The position numbers were made by a program, and so were the translations under genes. Source: Candidatus Limnocylindria bacterium (lineage in GTDB: Bacteria > Patescibacteriota > Saccharimonadia > Saccharimonadales > JAGQNK01). From it: DNA of 59,537 nt. This document shows, piece after piece, positions 7,937 through 59,537 of this stretch. Location of the stretch: NCBI GenBank assembly GCA_035489815.1, contig DATHJH010000013.1, forward strand, positions 1 through 59,537. Reading direction: 5' to 3'. The notes under the pieces were generated by a model that did not search any database, had not been told where the DNA came from, and saw nothing but the letters and a program-made list of their open reading frames with translations. The stretch's first letter is position 1; each line of letters starts with the position of its first letter.

Positions 7937-8638
7937 ATGGATTTTAGTACATATAAAAGGTTTGCAGAAGAAAGTCTGGGCGTTGCCTTTGACCGGTTAG
8001 AATTGTTAGTAACGGCCTTTACCCACCGGTCTTACGTCAACGAGCACAAAAAATCGGTAAAAGAGCACAACGAACGTCTGGAATTCCTGGGTGATGCTGT
8101 TCTGGAACTGGTGGTAACAGAATATCTGTATGCCAATTTTAGTGAACCGGAAGGCGTACTGACTAACTGGCGCAGCGCCCTGGTGCGGACCGAAAGCATT
8201 GGTGCGGCTGCGGCACGGCTGGAATTTGAACCGCTGCTGCGCCTCAGCCGGGGCGAAAAGCGCGGCACAGCCCGTGCTCGTGCCCAAATCCTGGCCAATA
8301 CCTTTGAGGCGGTGATTGGTGCCCTGTACCTCGATCAAGGCTATGAGGCGTCCAAGGTTTTTATAGAAAAGAATTTGCTGATCACTTTTGCTGAAATTTT
8401 AAAAACTGGCTCCTGGATGGATCCAAAGTCCCACCTGCAGGAAGTGGTCCAGAGTCAGGAAGGCCACACGCCGCAGTACAAAGTACTTTCCGAAGAAGGG
8501 CCGGATCATGAAAAGACTTTTGCCGTTGGTGTATTTGCCGGCGGTACCTTACGCGGCAAGGGCACCGGTCCCAGCAAACAAACCGCTCAGGTAGCGGCCG
8601 CCGAAAACGCGCTAAAGGGCCAGAAGACCCGTACCTAA
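7937..8638 (+). CDS. rnc: Ribonuclease III
   Basis: AFTHRS, NERLEFLGDAVL signature, C-terminal dsRBD. Confidence 0.98.
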   Translation: MDFSTYKRFAEESLGVAFDRLELLVTAFTHRSYVNEHKKSVKEHNERLEFLGDAVLELVVTEYLYANFSEPEGVLTNWRSALVRTESIGAAAARLEFEPLLRLSRGEKRGTARARAQILANTFEAVIGALYLDQGYEASKVFIEKNLLITFAEILKTGSWMDPKSHLQEVVQSQEGHTPQYKVLSEEGPDHEKTFAVGVFAGGTLRGKGTGPSKQTAQVAAAENALKGQKTRT

Positions 8639-32361: not shown

Positions 32362-32483
32362 AGCTTTAACACCTCCTTGTATTATCTACATTAGTCGAAA
32401 AGGGAAAATATGTCTGTAAGTTTTACCCCTCTCCTCCTGCCCCGAAATCCATCATGATCCAGAATCCGGGGATTGAGAGCTTA

Positions 32484-32530
32484 GAACCCATTCCAAGTCT
32501 TTTCACCACGGCCGAGTCCGCCTTTCGGGC
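32484..32530. mobile_element. Truncated GAACC-MITE (subtype 1, one end only)
   Basis: TTA|GAACCCATTCCAAGTCTTTTCACCACGGCCGAG matches the start of copy A. Confidence 0.75.
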
Positions 32531-33023: not shown

Positions 33024-33677
33024 CTAATTTAAGATGCTGACAGAGCGGGCCAGGATGAGTGCTAAAGTAAAAACCGACACCAGCGCCTGGATGCCCATCA
33101 GGCACTTGGCCTGAGTAGTGATGGGCTTTGCGTCAGCAGGTGCAAAATTGATAGCATTCGTTACCGAAAGGTAGAGGTAGTCAATGAATCCAGGCTGCCA
33201 ATCTGGAAAATCTTTGGGCAAATCCTGTTGGGTAAACTGAAAATCCTTGTCATGCCTGGACCACTTCCGGCCTGTCAGCCCTGGGCTGTCTATCTCCCAG
33301 TACCACAGAGCAAAGACAATGATATTGGTCAGAAAGATTGCCACAGCAGCCATAATCAAGTCCCGCCCGGACAAGGTCAGCCGTTCAGAGATAAGCAGCC
33401 GGGACACCAGGAAAAAGGATATAATATTAGCTACAGAAATAAGTCCAAGCAGCAGTAGTGACAATGTCCGGTAGACAGGGTTTGGGCGAATATGGCGTTT
33501 GCCTGCGCTCATGCCAATGATGATGGACAGGGCAACTTCCGTGCCAACGATGAGGTTATGCGGCCCTAAAGTGAGTTCTGGGTTAATCGCCCATGCCGCA
33601 ACCTGGAGTAGGATAGCCACAAAAAGTGCTCCCTGGGCCAGCCAAAGTTCTGTGCGTGAAATCGGGTGTACTTTCAT
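33024..33677 (-). CDS. DUF1345-like membrane protein
   Basis: ALWYWEID, DFQFTQ, W.PGFIDYLYLSVTN..NFAPAD. Confidence 0.8.
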   Translation of the reverse strand: MKVHPISRTELWLAQGALFVAILLQVAAWAINPELTLGPHNLIVGTEVALSIIIGMSAGKRHIRPNPVYRTLSLLLLGLISVANIISFFLVSRLLISERLTLSGRDLIMAAVAIFLTNIIVFALWYWEIDSPGLTGRKWSRHDKDFQFTQQDLPKDFPDWQPGFIDYLYLSVTNAINFAPADAKPITTQAKCLMGIQALVSVFTLALILARSVSILN

Positions 33678-33795
33678 AGACTTAAACTCATTTTATATCT
33701 CTATGCCGTTTAGAGCTAATTGAACCCAATGGGTTCAGTCAATTCTCCTGCCGGCCAAAACTCTCAGATTTTGCTTATAACAGAGAAGTAGCTGG

Positions 33796-35124
33796 CTACC
33801 TTCCAAGTTTTTTAATGGCTGCCTGAATCTGTGAAAAGTTCTGTATGCCAGCAGCAGGAATGAGGGCTGACTGGCCAGTCGGAGTGGTGTAGCTGGCCAG
33901 CAGATTTTTGCCGTTGATGTCCCGCAAGGTCACGGGCTGTAGCTTGTCCTCGGGTACGCTGGTGAAGAGCCGGTACAGGGGCAGGACTTCGCCGATCTGT
34001 ATGTCAGTTTTAACGTTGTTGCCCGCGGCGTCAAAGATCTTGCCGTTTGTACGCGGGTCAAGGATTAACTTCCAGTCCAGTTCGTTTTTAATGGCCCCAA
34101 AGACCTGTTGCTGGTTTTGGGTGCGGTTAAAGTCTGACAGGGGAAAACCGTAGGAACCATAGGTGGAGCCGCGGGCGCGGGTCAGGCGCAGAGCCGTCTG
34201 GCCGTCTATGGTATGGGTGCCGTTGCTCAGCTTTAGCTTGCCGCCTTGTTCACGGGGGAAGTTTGGGTCGTAGATGCCGCGGGGGTCGGGACTTTTTATG
34301 GTCACACTGACGCCGTCCAGGGCATCCACAACCTCTTTGACTGCAGTGTAGTTGATGAGCGCGTAGTAATGCAGTTCTATGTCCAGGTTGTCGCTGATCA
34401 CTTTTTCCAGCAAGCCCATACCGCCGCGGGGGTAGTCGGTGCCACGGAACTTCATGGTTTCGCCAGCCTGGTAGGCTTCATTGACTTTGGCGGCACCATA
34501 GTCAGGAATGGTCACGTACAGATCACGCGGTACGCTCAGCATGTATCCGGTGTGGCTGTCTTTGTCCAGACTGAGGATAAGGACCGAGTCTGTAAGCAAG
34601 GCTCCGGCATGTCCCGGGTCATCGACAGAGTAGCCCACCAGCAAGATGTTTACTCTGCCGTCCGCAGTCGCTTGCAGTTCGTCCGTGAGTAGTACTTTCC
34701 AGGCATTGTTGGTGCCAAACAGCTTTTTGCTGGCCCCGGAGAAGTTACGAAAATCCCAGGCGGCAACGACTGCAAGAAAAATAAAAGGAACCAGGAAAAG
34801 CAGTATGAGCAGTCTTTTCCAGATTTTACGCTTTTTCCCGGGTGGGGCCTCATCCACGTCCGGCGTCGTAAATTTGGCCGGCTGGTAAGAGGTGGTTGTT
34901 ATAGCGTGGTAGTTCTTAGAACCCATCCAGGATCCTTTCTCCTTGCCGAGACCACTTTTCGGGTGTGAGCCGCTTGTTTTTTGCTCAGAAAGGTACCTAT
35001 CGGTACCTTTCTGAGCAAAAGGCGGGCGGATTGCATGCGAAAACTGGTCGGAGTCAGTGGAAAAGATCCTGGATGGGTTCTTAGGCTGGGGGAGAGGGGT
35101 CTTCTTGGTTTTTTTAGAACCCAT
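33796..35124 (-). CDS. LytR-CpsA-Psr (LCP) family protein with MITE-modified N-terminus
   Basis: RVNILLVG, LTDSVLILS, LSVPRDLYV, ALRLTRAR, DFNRTQNQQ; the ATG at 35124 lies inside a MITE TIR. Confidence 0.92.
   Translation of the reverse strand: MGSKKTKKTPLPQPKNPSRIFSTDSDQFSHAIRPPFAQKGTDRYLSEQKTSGSHPKSGLGKEKGSWMGSKNYHAITTTSYQPAKFTTPDVDEAPPGKKRKIWKRLLILLFLVPFIFLAVVAAWDFRNFSGASKKLFGTNNAWKVLLTDELQATADGRVNILLVGYSVDDPGHAGALLTDSVLILSLDKDSHTGYMLSVPRDLYVTIPDYGAAKVNEAYQAGETMKFRGTDYPRGGMGLLEKVISDNLDIELHYYALINYTAVKEVVDALDGVSVTIKSPDPRGIYDPNFPREQGGKLKLSNGTHTIDGQTALRLTRARGSTYGSYGFPLSDFNRTQNQQQVFGAIKNELDWKLILDPRTNGKIFDAAGNNVKTDIQIGEVLPLYRLFTSVPEDKLQPVTLRDINGKNLLASYTTPTGQSALIPAAGIQNFSQIQAAIKKLGR
34919..35080. 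mobile_element. GAACC-MITE copy B (subtype 1), in frame within the LCP gene
   Basis: 162 bp, TIR GAACCCATCCAGGATC, TTA/TAA duplication on both sides. Confidence 0.95.
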
Positions 35125-35277
35125 TTCAAAACCCCCTCTCTGCTGCAAACCATGTCTGGCGGACCAAATTGCCGTTTTGTTTCGCAGCGTATCTACGGAT
35201 ACGCTTTGTCACAAGAACAACAATTTCGCCCTGCCAGAACATGCTTTTCGCCCTGAAAGGGGATTTGAAATGGGTTC
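35117..35277. mobile_element. GAACC-MITE copy C (subtype 2) at the LCP start
   Basis: 161 bp, TIR GAACCCATTTCAAA, TA on both sides; homologous to 49081-49304. Confidence 0.92.
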
Positions 35278-35334
35278 TACGCATATATTTAGATATTTTT
35301 CCTTTCTTAGCATAGCAAATTTTAGCGAAAAGAC

Positions 35335-35381
35335 TTGACGAACGAGCCAATGCAGATTATCATTCAACTATATGGTTGAAT
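35335..35381 (+). promoter_or_regulatory. Promoter and autoregulatory operator of the ArsR operon
   Basis: TTGACG-17 nt-TATCAT; palindrome ATTCAAC-TATATG-GTTGAAT (35362-35381) over the ATG. Confidence 0.75.
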
Positions 35382-35695
35382 ATACTGCAAACCTGGATTT
35401 AATCTTTCAGTCACTGGCCGACCCCACCCGGCGGGATATTTTAGCCCATGTTTCCAAACAATCGATGTCCGTTGGCGAGATTGCCAAATTTTACGACCTG
35501 ACATTTGCAGCCGTTTCCAAACACCTGAAGGTAATGGAAAAGGCAAAGCTGGTTAGCAAACAGCGGCGCGGAAAGGAGCGAATCGTGACGGCAGCACCCA
35601 GCACGCTTCATGACGCCTCAGACTATCTAAAGCGCTACGAAGCCATGTGGAATGAGCGTTTCGACGCATTGGATGAGTATTTAAAAGGTAACTAA
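35372..35695 (+). CDS. ArsR/SmtB-family regulator
   Basis: IFQSLADPTRRDIL, VSKHLKVMEKAKLV..RRGKER. Confidence 0.93.
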   Translation: MVEYTANLDLIFQSLADPTRRDILAHVSKQSMSVGEIAKFYDLTFAAVSKHLKVMEKAKLVSKQRRGKERIVTAAPSTLHDASDYLKRYEAMWNERFDALDEYLKGN

Positions 35696-41637: not shown

Positions 41638-41811
41638 GAACCCATCCAGGATCTCGCTCCCGATGCCAAAATTGCTCCCTTCTTGTATGAAAAGCGAGTC
41701 CCAATTCGTTCTGGTTTGTCTGGCGTACCCGTGGGTACGGCAGACGGATCAGGGCGGATTGGGGCCGGAATGGGCGGTTTTGGGCCGGGATTGGAGATTT
41801 TGGATGGGTTC
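41638..41811. mobile_element. GAACC-MITE copy G (subtype 3)
   Basis: 174 bp, TAA on both sides; followed by a further GAACCTATCC end remnant at 41815. Confidence 0.93.
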
Positions 41812-49080: not shown

Positions 49081-49304
49081 GAACCCATTTCAAATCCCCT
49101 CCCTACTGCAAACCCTGTCCGGTGCACCAGGAGGCTGTTTTGCTTCGAGATCGTGGCTTTTTGGAAGCTAGGCAGGCTAAGCCTGCCTGCTTGCCAAAAA
49201 GAGACCATGTCACCATATCTAAAGATATGCTTTGTTACAAGAACAGCCACCTGGCACTACCGGGCCAGGCTTTTCGTACTTGGGAGGAGATTTGACATGG
49301 GTTC
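49081..49304. mobile_element. GAACC-MITE copy E (subtype 2) with a nested palindromic insert of about 63 bp
   Basis: 224 bp, TAA on both sides; aligns to copy C except for the central AGGCAGGC-TAA-GCCTGCCT hairpin block. Confidence 0.92.
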
Positions 49305-57556: not shown

Positions 57557-59362
57557 ATGAGCGAGGGGCGTTCTAAGAACCCATTCCAAATCTTTTTCTC
57601 TGACTCCAACCGCTTTTCGCATGCAATCCAACTGCCTTTTGCTTCAAAAGGTAGCTATGGCTACCTTTCAAAACAAAAAACAGCCGGCTCACACCCGAAA
57701 AGCGGTTTCGGCAAGGAGAAAAGATCTGGAATGGGCTCTAAATACCTGCTGAAGCTAACGCTTCTTTTTGTGATTTACTTTGCGACGGGGAGGTTGGGAC
57801 TCAGCCTGGATGCAGTCAGTGGGTTTGCCGCACTGGTCTGGGCTCCTACTGGCATTGCTTTGGCGGCGATGCTTATTCTGGGCTTTCGCTACTGGCCAGG
57901 CATTGCGCTTGGCGCGGTGCTGGTCAATATGGCGGCCGGGGCTCCGCTGCTGGTCGCCCTCGGCATTGGATGTGGCAATACGCTGGAGGCGCTCGCCGGT
58001 GCGTATGTGCTAAAACGTTTTACCAGGTTTCAGATTTCTTTGGAGCGGGTTGCCGATGTGCTGAGGCTTATCTTTTTTGCGGCAATTGCCAGCACGTTAG
58101 TCAGTGCCACCATTGGCGTGACGAGCCTGCTATTGGGTGGTCTTGTTGCAGGAGAGGGGTACGGGGAAACATGGATTGCCTGGTGGATTGGGGATATGTT
58201 GGGGGCACTTATAGTTACGCCGTTGCTCCTGGTCTGGCACGAACGCCTGCGCAGGCCGCTGGATCCACGCCGATTTGCCTCCGCCGCAGTGCCTATCCTG
58301 CTGTTGGCTGCAGTAAGCATCGTGATCTTTCGCGGTCTGCCCGGGCGGGACATCAGGCCGCTTACCTTTGCCTACATTATTTTCCCGATTTTAATATGGA
58401 TTGCGCTGAGGTTTGGCCAGCGCGGCAGCGTCACGGCCATGTTCATAGTGTCATGCATTGCTATTTGGGAAACAGTCACTACCCACAACTATTCCAGTGC
58501 GCTTACGCTAAGCCAGAATCTTTTGTTGCTACAAAGTTTTATAGGCATCACCGCTGCGACTTTTATGACCATGGCGGCGGTGGTTTCCGAGCGCGAGCAA
58601 ACCCAGAAACGTCAACAGTACCTGGAACAAAAAGCAGCGCTGCTCACCAAACAGCGCTCCAGACTGGAGATGCTGAACCGGGCTAAGGACGAATTCATAT
58701 CAATTGCCTCTCATCAGCTCCGCACGCCTGCCACCGGCGTTAAGCAATACCTGGGTATGTTGTTGCAGGACTACGCCGGCCGCCTGAGCAAGCAACAGCA
58801 TGCTCACGTCACTACGGCATATGAAAACAACGAGCGGCAGCTAAAGATTATTGAAGATTTACTACACGTGGCGCGGATAGACGCCGGGAAACTGCCGCTG
58901 AACAAAACAACTTGCGACCTGAATAAGCTGATGGGCGAGGTAGCAGCCCAGCAAGCCGAGGCTTTCAAGGAGCGAGGCCAGAAATTGTTGTTTAGCCCAG
59001 CCAAAGGTTCTATAAAGGCCAGGGCCGATAAGGAGCTGCTGCGTATGGTCCTGGAGAACCTCATAGACAACGCCGGCAAGTATTCGCCAGCTGGCGAAAA
59101 GGTTCGTCTGAGCGTAAGCAAAATGGATAGGATGGTTCGGCTGGAGATACACGACAAGGGCTTTGGCATCACCAAAAAAGATCAGAAAAAGTTGTTTCAA
59201 AAGTTTTCCCGGGTGGACGCCCACTCTAACCTCATAGGTGGTTCCGGCCTCGGGTTATACTGGGCAAAAAAGGTTATTGACTTGCATGGGGGCAGTATTG
59301 ATCTTACGTCCGAGGCGGGCGAGGGCTCTACTTTTACGGTTAAGTTACCAGATAGTAGGTAG
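57557..59362 (+). CDS. MASE1-domain sensor histidine kinase with in-frame MITE near the N-terminus
   Basis: MASE1 (VWAPTGIALA, WWIGDMLG, WIALRFG), ASHQLRTP H-box, ENLIDNAGKYS, GSGLGLY; TATAAT 6 nt before ATG. Confidence 0.95.
   Translation: MSEGRSKNPFQIFFSDSNRFSHAIQLPFASKGSYGYLSKQKTAGSHPKSGFGKEKRSGMGSKYLLKLTLLFVIYFATGRLGLSLDAVSGFAALVWAPTGIALAAMLILGFRYWPGIALGAVLVNMAAGAPLLVALGIGCGNTLEALAGAYVLKRFTRFQISLERVADVLRLIFFAAIASTLVSATIGVTSLLLGGLVAGEGYGETWIAWWIGDMLGALIVTPLLLVWHERLRRPLDPRRFASAAVPILLLAAVSIVIFRGLPGRDIRPLTFAYIIFPILIWIALRFGQRGSVTAMFIVSCIAIWETVTTHNYSSALTLSQNLLLLQSFIGITAATFMTMAAVVSEREQTQKRQQYLEQKAALLTKQRSRLEMLNRAKDEFISIASHQLRTPATGVKQYLGMLLQDYAGRLSKQQHAHVTTAYENNERQLKIIEDLLHVARIDAGKLPLNKTTCDLNKLMGEVAAQQAEAFKERGQKLLFSPAKGSIKARADKELLRMVLENLIDNAGKYSPAGEKVRLSVSKMDRMVRLEIHDKGFGITKKDQKKLFQKFSRVDAHSNLIGGSGLGLYWAKKVIDLHGGSIDLTSEAGEGSTFTVKLPDSR
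57577..57738. mobile_element. GAACC-MITE copy F (subtype 1), in frame within the kinase gene
   Basis: 162 bp, TAA on both sides; homologous to copy B. Confidence 0.95.
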
Positions 59363-59386: not shown

Positions 59387-59537
59387 GAACCCATCTAGGA
59401 TCTCGCTCCCGATGCCAAAATTGCTCCATTTCGAGTACCAATTTGTTCTGGTTTGTCTGCCGTACCCGTGGGTACGGCAGACGGATCAGGGCGGATTGGG
59501 GCCGGAATGGGCGGTTTTGGCGCGGGATTGGAGATTT
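59387..59537. mobile_element. GAACC-MITE copy H (subtype 3), cut by the window end
   Basis: TAA|GAACCCATCTAGGATCTCGCTCCCGATGCC, nearly identical to copy G; preceded by a right-end remnant GATGGGTTC (59375-59383). Confidence 0.92.

Follow-up and report, generated by a model that had tools for sequence, protein, structure and literature searches.

An LCP (LytR-CpsA-Psr) cell-envelope gene of a Saccharimonadales soil bacterium, on the minus strand of the window, the whole stretch of 59,537 nucleotides that was analysed, carries two MITEs within its first 15 codons. Copy B is probably read through as part of the protein, and the AUG in the terminal repeat of copy C is probably reached by termination-reinitiation. 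The LCP frame is unbroken because copy B reads through in frame and copy C ends in a putative ribosome site, a stop and a start of its own. The features of the locus are given below in window positions; the LCP gene and both elements are read on the minus strand.

33796..35124, minus strand: LCP frame, 442 codons and the TAG stop (33798-33796) when counted from MITE C's terminal-repeat ATG
34919..35080, minus strand: MITE B, 162 bp, with the TAA duplication at 35081-83 and 34916-18
34924..34926, minus strand: terminal-repeat ATG of MITE B, also in the LCP frame, an alternative start giving MGSKNYHAITT...
35117..35277, minus strand: MITE C, 161 bp, GAACCC...GGGTTC, ends GAACCCATTTCAAA / TTTGAAATGGGTTC, with the TA duplication at 35278-79 and 35115-16
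35122..35124, minus strand: terminal-repeat ATG of MITE C, the proposed present start, in the LCP frame
35126..35284, minus strand: upstream ORF made by the insertion, from the native ATG through 52 stop-free codons across MITE C to TGA 35128-35126
35134..35143, minus strand: SD-like GAGAGGGGGU, which precedes the terminal-repeat ATG by 10-19 nt
35282..35284, minus strand: native (ancestral) LCP start codon, now out of the LCP frame
35285..35371, minus strand: 87-bp spacer separating the native LCP ATG from the divergent ArsR-type gene; orthologous loci have a homologous ArsR-DUF1345 spacer
35372..35695, plus strand: divergent ArsR/HTH_20 regulator gene, the neighbour of LCP

When the sequence and its ORFs were checked, the coordinates and reading-frame statements made for both MITEs by the first-pass annotation all proved correct. 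A comparison of LCP N-termini in relatives, which that annotation had proposed, bore out its predicted ancestral sequence, MRKKTKKTPLPQPKNYH. Five orthologous LCP genes contain neither element, and their N-termini (MRKK…(L/Q)PK-NYHAITT) match the predicted empty sites:

G004: MRKKSPPPQEPLPKNYHAITT
G006: MRKDTQKAAVPQPKNFHALTT
G005: MHKKIPHTKHQLPKNYHAITT
Metagenome L061: MMKRKTSHKKDTPSLPKNYHAITT
G033: short, basic N-terminus

Joining the flanks after removal gives ATG CGT AAA AAA ACC ..., i.e., MRKKTKKTPLPQPKNYHAITT. Excision of copy C was claimed to place this start in the LCP frame and does so, and the start of G004 reads ATG CGT AAA AAA TCC. Copy B was said to be in frame, its excision restoring PLPQPK-NYHAIT; together with TAA it comprises 165 bp, or 55 codons, that continue the LCP frame without a stop and correspond to a gap of ~54-55 residues in every orthologue aligned (five). 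Copy C is absent from all five as well. An exact 30-nt anchor from between both MITEs gave zero matches when searched in metagenome contigs, and a protein-seeded scan of genome contigs turned up no relative.

The codons contributed by copy B (NPSRIFSTDSDQF...KGSWMGSK) fall in the cytoplasmic N-terminal tail, before the membrane helix, and would simply be translated as part of that tail. In this respect copy B is like the Rickettsia palindromic elements (RPEs; Ogata et al. 2000, via PMC10969869, PMC3184786), which those accounts describe as ~150-bp palindromes lying in frame in unrelated genes and translated. The likeness is one of working only (a length that is a multiple of three, no stop), copy B being from a different phylum and having a putative IS5-type parent. 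As far as the same accounts go, neither a recognised transposase partner nor a duplication is known for RPEs, nor any replacement of start codons by them. In this genome a putative parent IS exists, and copy C is unlike RPEs in that it would work by a stop-start module in place of read-through. LCP might alternatively be translated from the copy B ATG (34926), with copy C and the 5' part of B reduced to a leader. This ATG is in frame, AAGGAGAAAGGA lies 6-18 nt upstream of it, and its product would come close to the ancestral protein in length. However, it too is buried, in a predicted rod of -101.6 kcal/mol; there is no stop just ahead of it, so that ribosomes coming from upstream would read through and not restart; and the frame open from 35124 through B would not be needed. 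A start within copy B is thus quite unlikely, and read-through of copy B is preferred.

In copy C, the 161 bp and the 2-bp duplication shift the frame by one base and uncouple the native start from LCP. As the first-pass annotation had noted, the native ATG now reads 52 codons (a peptide of 52 residues, MRRTHFKSPF...AAERGF) to a TGA one base before the in-frame terminal-repeat ATG (TGA 35128-35126, A 35125, ATG 35124-35122, read as AUG-GGU-UC). The TTG at 35148, which the gene finder takes as the LCP start, shares its frame with this ATG. The SD-like GAGAGGGGGU could pair with the 16S 3' end (...ACCUCCUUUCU), which bears a canonical anti-SD, by a hand-derived pairing with two G-U pairs. Its distance of at least 10 nt from the AUG is at the long end of the usual spacing, which counts against the rescue model; in favour of the model, SD motifs genome-wide have a positional peak at -9 to -16. 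The MITE C RNA is predicted to fold into a single rod (-94.1 kcal/mol, z = -9.65), in which the SD-like motif and the terminal-repeat AUG are both fully paired.

Since motif and AUG are predicted to be buried in the rod, coupling seems to be favoured over free initiation. The promoter presumably sits in the 87-bp spacer 35285..35371. In the proposed mechanism, ribosomes would load at the native AUG, out of the polymerase before the rod can form. Translation of the 52-codon MITE frame would then melt the -94 kcal/mol rod that hides the SD-like motif and the AUG, and ribosomes would terminate at the UGA and restart one base downstream, at AUG-GGU-UC. The product would be an LCP protein starting MGSKKTKK... 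in place of MRKKTKK..., with the N-terminal peptide (M)GSKKTKKTPLPQPK. The native ATG is without a well-spaced SD and stands only 5 nt ahead of the rod base, a closeness that could impede ribosome loading. We infer that the terminal-repeat AUG is used and that termination-reinitiation is its likeliest route. The arrangement is like that of termination-reinitiation in operons and RNA phages (PMC5972666; PMC9955659), where the stop lies within a base of the AUG, the SD lies within the upstream ORF, and the downstream site is masked by a structure that translation opens. The first two features are present here, the second as an SD-like motif, and the masking is predicted. Unlike in those systems, a transposon insertion that separates a start codon from its gene has made the upstream ORF, and the mobile element carries the module.

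The copy C AUG might also be used by direct initiation, independently of the upstream ORF, either while the mRNA is nascent and the rod has yet to form or once RNase III has cut the double-stranded rod and freed a short leader, as described for Correia elements. A GGAG or GAGG is present at -20 to -5 of 79 of 103 element ends, compared with about one fifth of long-ORF starts, which is consistent with such initiation as well as with termination-reinitiation; an RNase III gene lies in the window (8072-8341), and cleavage of Correia terminal repeats by RNase III is documented (PMC10969869). Yet the SD-like motif and AUG would be fully paired in the folded RNA, and direct initiation accounts neither for a native frame that is stop-free across the whole element in most cases nor for a UGA exactly at -4 to -2. 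Direct initiation is therefore unlikely, and termination-reinitiation remains the preferred reading.

The arrangement seen at copy C recurs elsewhere in this genome, where elements adjoin or follow the native starts of further genes:

ABC exporter: element follows native ATGACTCA
UbiA: element follows native GTGCTATT
200-aa membrane ORF: element follows native ATGAATACTA
NUDIX: element adjoins the native ATG
Second LCP paralogue: element adjoins the native ATG; the TGA-N-ATG end is kept, in a frame without an opening start codon

At the ABC, UbiA, 200-aa ORF and NUDIX loci, the native or junction start leads through 50-90 stop-free codons to a TGA, one base and an in-frame ATG or GTG. Among 12 relatives, no close orthologues of the ABC and UbiA genes were found (17-42% identity only), and the native starts of these two are based on the excised sequence and Pfam coverage alone. 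The ORFs at C16:134, C35:12941 and C34:7638 were dropped as examples because they have no family match and look non-coding, as was that at C32:11963, whose coding status is uncertain.

In an independent genome, Ca. Saccharimonadales SMAG_U15698, 7 of ~10 elements are placed at the very start of an intact gene or no more than 4 codons from it:

SMAG_U15698 genes with the same layout: ExoD, ArsP permease, Mur ligase, sortase, TypA-like GTPase and two hypotheticals

The empty site of TypA is confirmed by the MITE-free TypA orthologue in the LCP-bearing genome, MSQTIQDPTKIRNIAIIAHVDHGKT. Across the two genomes, the layout of native ATG, open frame through the MITE, UGA-N-AUG and gene is found at at least 12 genes besides LCP. 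No gene fusions of subfamily copies were found in G287, G247 and G276, where the copies are intergenic, indicating that the association with start codons is not universal.

A genome-wide count against the expectation of one third, which the first-pass annotation had put forward as a check, revealed a bias of frame. Where a MITE end leads directly into an open frame of 100 codons or more, its terminal-repeat start shares that frame at 12 of 16 ends in this genome (12:4:0, p = 8e-4; a crude tally that still includes C16:134, C35:12941, C34:7638 and C32:11963) and at 7 of 9 in SMAG_U15698 (7:1:1), which gives 19/25 when the two are pooled (p = 1.6e-5). In this genome, the start is in frame in all seven insertions in 5' coding regions and in neither of two in 5'-UTRs. 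Of 76 copies, 42, 35 and 23 have stop-free frames where shuffled sequences lead one to expect 14.6, 14.7 and 11.7, a ~2-3x excess, though these open frames are not independent events because the element copies share a common ancestry. The stop-start spacing of copy C is seen at 32 of 103 element ends. The ATG of the conserved end word ATGGGTTC could itself be incidental, as this word would be required anyway as the transposase site.

The LCP gene looks alive, judging from the retention of 154 of 160 (96%) orthologue-invariant columns; intact orthologues retain 92-98%. The protein has 62-75% identity to the five orthologues and contains the LCP domain (Pfam PF03816, E = 3.9e-28). The empty sites, the frame bias and this conservation together give good support to the claim of the first-pass annotation that the terminal-repeat ATG would rescue disrupted genes, and rescue of LCP by such a start is likewise well supported. 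LCP could instead be a young pseudogene, inactivated by C, in which the ATG and copy B are in frame by chance, its function being supplied by the paralogue on contig C12. A single ATG would fall in frame one time in three by chance, the age of the insertion cannot be measured from the copies because their hairpin-compensated differences probably predate it, and a second LCP gene does exist, so that loss of this one might be tolerated for a time. Against this stand the body of 372 codons, free of stops and frameshifts, with its retained invariant columns, the repetition of the layout at the other genes of the two genomes (a Mur ligase and a TypA-like GTPase among them), and the pooled frame bias (p ~2e-5). 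A pseudogene is very unlikely.

MITEs are known to bring promoters, IHF sites, RNase III sites, small RNAs and in-frame peptides. Copy C might act chiefly as an outward promoter of Correia-like or REP2-like kind, with LCP transcribed from inside the element, and Correia, MITEAba12 and other MITEs offer precedents. However, a crude scan of the gene strand from 34800 to 35450 revealed no sigma-70-like site, in a phylum whose promoters are poorly known, and a promoter would leave the frame relations unexplained, making this reading very unlikely. Neisseria REP2 and the Borrelia IR repeats (Morelle et al. 2003, Dunn et al. 1994, via PMC3184786) are among the closest known systems; REP2 has a promoter, lacks terminal inverted repeats and is not a transposon, whereas the elements here have such repeats, no promoter detected on the gene strand, and a site within the first codons.

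For a terminal repeat that gives a neighbouring gene its first residues, we found only one precedent, MITEAba12 of Acinetobacter (Adams & Brown 2019, PMC6382973), and it is descriptive. MITEAba12 likewise has outward-facing start codons at its ends, and in three annotated cases the neighbouring gene takes its first four residues (MQQS) from the terminal repeat (PMC6382973). Unlike copy C, it has stops in all six frames and neither a read-through upstream ORF nor overlapping stop and start codons; it is derived from ISAba12, makes a 9-bp duplication and adds an outward promoter, and frame statistics or clustering at start codons are not given in the report (PMC6382973). Neither start codons nor ribosome sites come up in a 2024 review of prokaryotic MITEs.

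Copies B and C are MITEs that appear to be related to an IS5-family insertion sequence of the same genome. They have terminal inverted repeats (GAACCCAT...ATGGGTTC), target-site duplications with precise empty sites, small size, many copies and no transposase gene. The arms of both were recovered by a repeat search, as I4 (83 nt, copy B) and I15 (41 nt, copy C). The genome contains ~86 related intervals and 38 full-length copies, and the end word TAAGAACCCAT occurs 20 times against 0.3 expected. The insertion sequence, of 940 bp at C5:27370-28309, encodes DDE_Tnp_1 and DUF4096 (Pfam E = 2.4e-29 and 1.2e-15, from conceptually joined ORFs, this copy containing frameshifts). Its end matches the B-type end at 16 of the first 19 nt and the C-type end at 15 of 19, the latter being identical only across the outer 9 nt (GAACCCATT). 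Tourist-like MITEs and the IS5 family make a 3-bp TWA duplication in CTWAG, and the 940-bp IS has similar ends; here direct TAA/TAA or TTA/TTA repeats within CTWAG are found in 14 of 16 TAA- or TTA-flanked copies. Subfamily C, the copy-C type, is unlike these in having only the outer ~8 nt in common with the IS and in making TA or AT duplications, that of copy C being TA and not the TWA of IS5-type copies. A second insertion class sits precisely on AT|G start codons; the duplication in this start-codon class may be AT, WAT or none with a T...A repeat extension. The divergence of the copies (closest identity 91% for B and only 77% for C) was rejected as a clock for dating the insertions, since all copies fold near-perfectly and their differences are compensated and probably older than insertion.

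As every member of the family would bring the stop-restart module with it, an insertion at a start codon or shortly behind it would do almost no harm, which would explain the presence of the subfamily at starts. More tentatively, subfamily C may have become adapted, as a transposon, to start codons as its habitat, with translational coupling cancelling the damage that it does to the gene. The element begins with G, and an insertion behind AT therefore re-creates an ATG at its left junction. Element length may be tuned modulo 3 (161+2, 163, 268+3), such that a junction ATG or a native ATG 1-4 codons upstream reads stop-free to a UGA, which may be set one base ahead of the SD-primed AUG-GGU-UC. 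The subfamily might target initiation regions, and the start codon may be its safe harbour in genomes of ~1.0-1.4 Mb. The ~160-nt rods before envelope genes (two LCP, Mur ligase, sortase, ExoD) could have been co-opted as translation-dependent regulators. A mobile element that ends in a stop-restart module would offer selfish DNA a new means of coexisting with dense genomes, and the tolerance of dozens of copies by a streamlined, gene-packed genome would be explained. In annotation, host genes would be called with wrong starts or as pseudogenes and short MITE-encoded peptides would be missed; the module is also a potential compact natural part for translational coupling.

A further trace of the family lies in the spacer from the LCP stop to the DUF1345 gene:

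33721..33737, no strand assigned: 17-bp relic TGAACCCAATGGGTTCA, two terminal repeats fused end to end

The 5' end of the minus-strand LCP gene of the window carries two MITEs, copy C and copy B, in its first codons, and the elements and reading frames are arranged as follows.

35284, minus strand: native LCP ATG.
35277-35117, minus strand: copy C (GAACCC...GGGTTC), 161 bp, TA at either side.
35143-35134, minus strand: SD-like run GAGAGGGGGU, just upstream of the terminal-repeat ATG (the outward ATG in the MITE end) of copy C.
35128-35126, minus strand: TGA ending a 52-codon frame from the ATG at 35284.
35124, minus strand: terminal-repeat ATG of copy C, one base past the TGA, opening a 442-codon frame.
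35080-34919, minus strand: copy B, 162 bp, TAA at either side.

Re-reading the minus strand confirmed all coordinates of the first-pass annotation, and a repeat search recovered both elements and their relatives. A LytR_cpsA_psr domain was found by Pfam search in the frame from 35124 (PF03816, E = 3.9e-28). Copy B adds exactly 55 stop-free codons, whose hydrophilic residues lie in the cytoplasmic tail before the single membrane helix, and in-silico excision joins the flanks into MRKKTKKTPLPQPKNYHAITT.

With the protein body as query, four close LCP orthologues (62-71% identity) were found among 40 related genomes, and a metagenome scan added a fifth (75% identity). Their N-termini read as follows.

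MRKKSPPPQEPLPK-NYHAITT
MRKDTQKAAVPQPK-NFHALTT
MHKKIPHTKHQLPK-NYHAITT
MMKRKTSHKKDTPSLPK-NYHAITT
MSKLNKKQPTESPK-DFRKLT

In the alignment, all five show a gap of ~54-55 residues exactly at the copy B position, and copy C is absent from all five. Since the five orthologues have neither element, copies B and C are, on sequence comparison, both specific to the present lineage. The ancestral LCP start predicted earlier proved correct, as the orthologue N-termini match it and the related genome G004 reads ATG CGT AAA AAA at the LCP start. It is very unlikely that the LCP gene is a young pseudogene; its body spans 372 codons without stop or frameshift and retains 154 of the 160 columns (96%) invariant among the other five orthologues, the corresponding leave-one-out values for the four close orthologues being 92-98%.

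Hand pairing of the SD-like run with the 16S 3' end (...ACCUCCUUUCU, contig C39) gives ten possible pairs, including two G-U pairs. Only ~30% of the genome's long ORFs have an SD motif, with a positional peak at -9 to -16. The copy C RNA is predicted to fold into a single long hairpin, or rod (-94.1 kcal/mol, z = -9.65), in which the SD-like run and AUG are wholly paired with the other terminal repeat, and the copy B RNA likewise folds with its terminal-repeat start paired (-101.6 kcal/mol). The predicted rods bury both terminal-repeat starts, which would therefore be closed to a free 30S subunit. The stop-start layout of copy C matches that of classical translational coupling. LCP is thus probably produced by restart: the native AUG at 35284 would still be in use, the ribosome translating the MITE frame from it would melt the rod and terminate at the UGA, one base from the terminal-repeat AUG, and LCP would be made through restart at that AUG. 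Direct initiation at the terminal-repeat AUG of copy C, co-transcriptionally or after RNase III cleavage, appears unlikely; in its favour, an rnc gene is present in the genome and RNase III processing is known for Correia elements (PMC10969869). It is very unlikely that LCP starts at the ATG of copy B, and highly improbable that copy C acts as an outward promoter, none having been detected by a crude sigma-70 scan of the gene strand between 34800 and 35450.

The 38 full-length elements of the genome were excised in silico and the junctions located in the restored sequence, revealing further insertions at gene starts (slash, junction).

ABC exporter: element 7-10 nt after the start, ATGACTCA/.
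UbiA prenyltransferase: element 7-10 nt after the start, GTGCTATT/.
200-aa membrane ORF: element 7-10 nt after the start, ATGAATACTA/.
NUDIX gene: element adjoins the native ATG.
C12:22446-22606: MITE adjoining the start of the second LCP paralogue (569 aa, native start MDNFRR), MSS/MDNFRR.
57577-57738: in-frame insert in a sensor kinase.
Window 49081-49304 and C18:17469-17630: leader insertions, 23 and 29 nt upstream of native starts.

In the LCP, ABC, UbiA, membrane ORF and NUDIX genes, the native or junction start opens a stop-free frame of 50-90 codons, which spans the entire element and ends with a TGA at -4 to -2; a terminal-repeat ATG or GTG in the gene's frame comes next. The second LCP paralogue keeps the TGA-N-ATG end, but the frame leading to that TGA is opened by no start codon; both LCP genes of the genome thus carry a MITE at the start. 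The terminal-repeat start is in frame in 7/7 insertions within 5' coding regions and out of frame in 2/2 insertions in 5' leaders (+23, +29). The genes behind the latter, histidine-phosphatase-like and NUDIX, are intact and form a contrast class to the coding-region insertions. The suggested frame bias of the terminal-repeat ATG was borne out in this genome: of the 103 MITE ends, 16 lead directly into an open frame of 100 or more codons, which is the ATG frame for 12, the +1 frame for 4 and the +2 frame for 0 (p = 8e-4), in a crude tally that includes several short ORFs, probably not genes. The layout follows from arithmetic: where the element and its duplication together measure 1 modulo 3 (161+2, 163, 268+3), having the terminal-repeat ATG in frame with the gene puts the native ATG into the UGA-ending frame. 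At C42:88452-88612, a 161-bp copy (net 163 bp) splits a TylF-type O-methyltransferase gene mid-gene, with its terminal-repeat ATG in frame with the 3' fragment; this gene is probably dead because the SAM-binding motif lies upstream of the split.

Across the elements, stop-free frames number 42, 35 and 23 of 76 versus 14.6, 14.7 and 11.7 expected from dinucleotide shuffles (a ~2-3-fold excess), 16/26 ends with TGA-N-ATG are open to the TGA versus 4.7 expected, GGAG or GAGG lies at -20 to -5 in 79/103 ends, and TGA lies at -4 to -2 in 32/103, all counts from copies that share ancestry and are not independent trials. Folds are strongly strand-asymmetric across the 38 full-length MITEs (e.g. window 34919-35080, 41638-41811 and 57577-57738): in the two subfamilies other than C, the fold energy is ~-100 to -110 kcal/mol on one strand (9-16 G-U pairs) and -60 to -80 kcal/mol on the other (0-2 G-U pairs), a pattern pointing to selection on just one strand, as RNA or as single-stranded DNA.

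The 1.40-Mb genome (45 contigs) contains ~86 related intervals. At many of its contig ends the assembly breaks off within a MITE copy (e.g. window 59387-59537), and the true copy number is therefore higher than counted; some gene-element junctions, among them that of the DUF1003 gene (C35:13553-13760), are visible from one side only. The end word GAACCCAT...ATGGGTTC is common to three subfamilies, and most B-type copies are flanked by direct TAA/TAA or TTA/TTA in a CTWAG target. The same ends occur on a 940-bp element at C5:27370-28309, where both read GGAG-N7-ATGGGTTC outward; it encodes a DDE_Tnp_1 + DUF4096 transposase and is thus an IS5-family insertion sequence, its coding sequence being interrupted by an A9 slippery run that separates two ORFs and by one further frameshift. 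This IS is the likely parent element. The IS5 family is the prokaryotic kin of the transposons moving Tourist MITEs. Subfamily C, the copy-C-type elements, shares only the outer ~8 nt with the IS and has 2-bp TA or AT duplications.

When 185,579 species genomes were scanned for exact words, subfamily C turned up in two other Saccharimonadales MAGs. One, SMAG_U15698 (~1.0 Mb), has 18 ends from ~10 elements, and seven of these ends continue in the ATG frame into intact genes (ExoD, ArsP permease, Mur ligase, sortase, TypA-like GTPase and two hypotheticals). Four of the seven elements lie exactly on the start codon (...AT/GAACCC...GGGTTCW/ATG...), where the element's first base, G, rebuilds the left-junction ATG, and three lie 7-11 nt inside the gene; in 7/7, the frame opened by the left ATG has no stop before TGA-A-ATG. 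The TypA empty site (ATG AGT ACA TT/.../A CAG GAT CCT) is confirmed by the MITE-free orthologue in the present genome, which begins MSQTIQDPTKIRNIAIIAHVDHGKT (83% identity). The frame count is 7:1:1, and the bias holds over both genomes pooled (19/25 in the ATG frame, p = 1.6e-5). The presence of an element at the start of so central a gene as a Mur ligase speaks for translation getting past the element. The location of the elements may reflect target preference or survival of harmless insertions, both compatible with the data.

Palindromic inserts that keep the reading frame are characteristic of Rickettsia RPEs (PMC10969869, PMC3184786), repeats are reported to lengthen 5' ends of genes in pneumococcus and Bordetella, and Neisseria REP2 provides a promoter, ribosome site and ATG without terminal repeats (PMC3184786). 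The nearest precedent for the terminal-repeat start of copy C is MITEAba12, for which the terminal repeat is reported to supply the opening four residues in three adjacent genes (PMC6382973). In full-text searches on terminal-repeat starts, ribosome sites or coupling, we found no MITE that joins an SD-stop-start end to a read-through frame and a start-codon location; a 2024 MITE review leaves start codons and ribosome sites unmentioned.

The gene order around LCP also differs. Three orthologous loci (L002, L003 and, from the metagenome, L061) read ArsR <-> DUF1345 -> LCP -> ORF161, whereas window 33024-35371 reads ArsR <-> LCP -> DUF1345 -> ORF161. The window's spacer between ArsR and LCP is homologous to the one between ArsR and DUF1345 in L002, and LCP would therefore now lie behind the former DUF1345 promoter; a similar motif is also found ahead of DUF1345. 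A duplication and subsequent deletions are the suggested origin of the swap. The LCP-DUF1345 spacer, which is new, contains a 17-bp palindrome (TGAACCCAATGGGTTCA, 33721-33737) that consists of two terminal repeats directly joined and could be either a MITE that collapsed or a footprint where a rearrangement took place. There is another remnant at 32481-32529.
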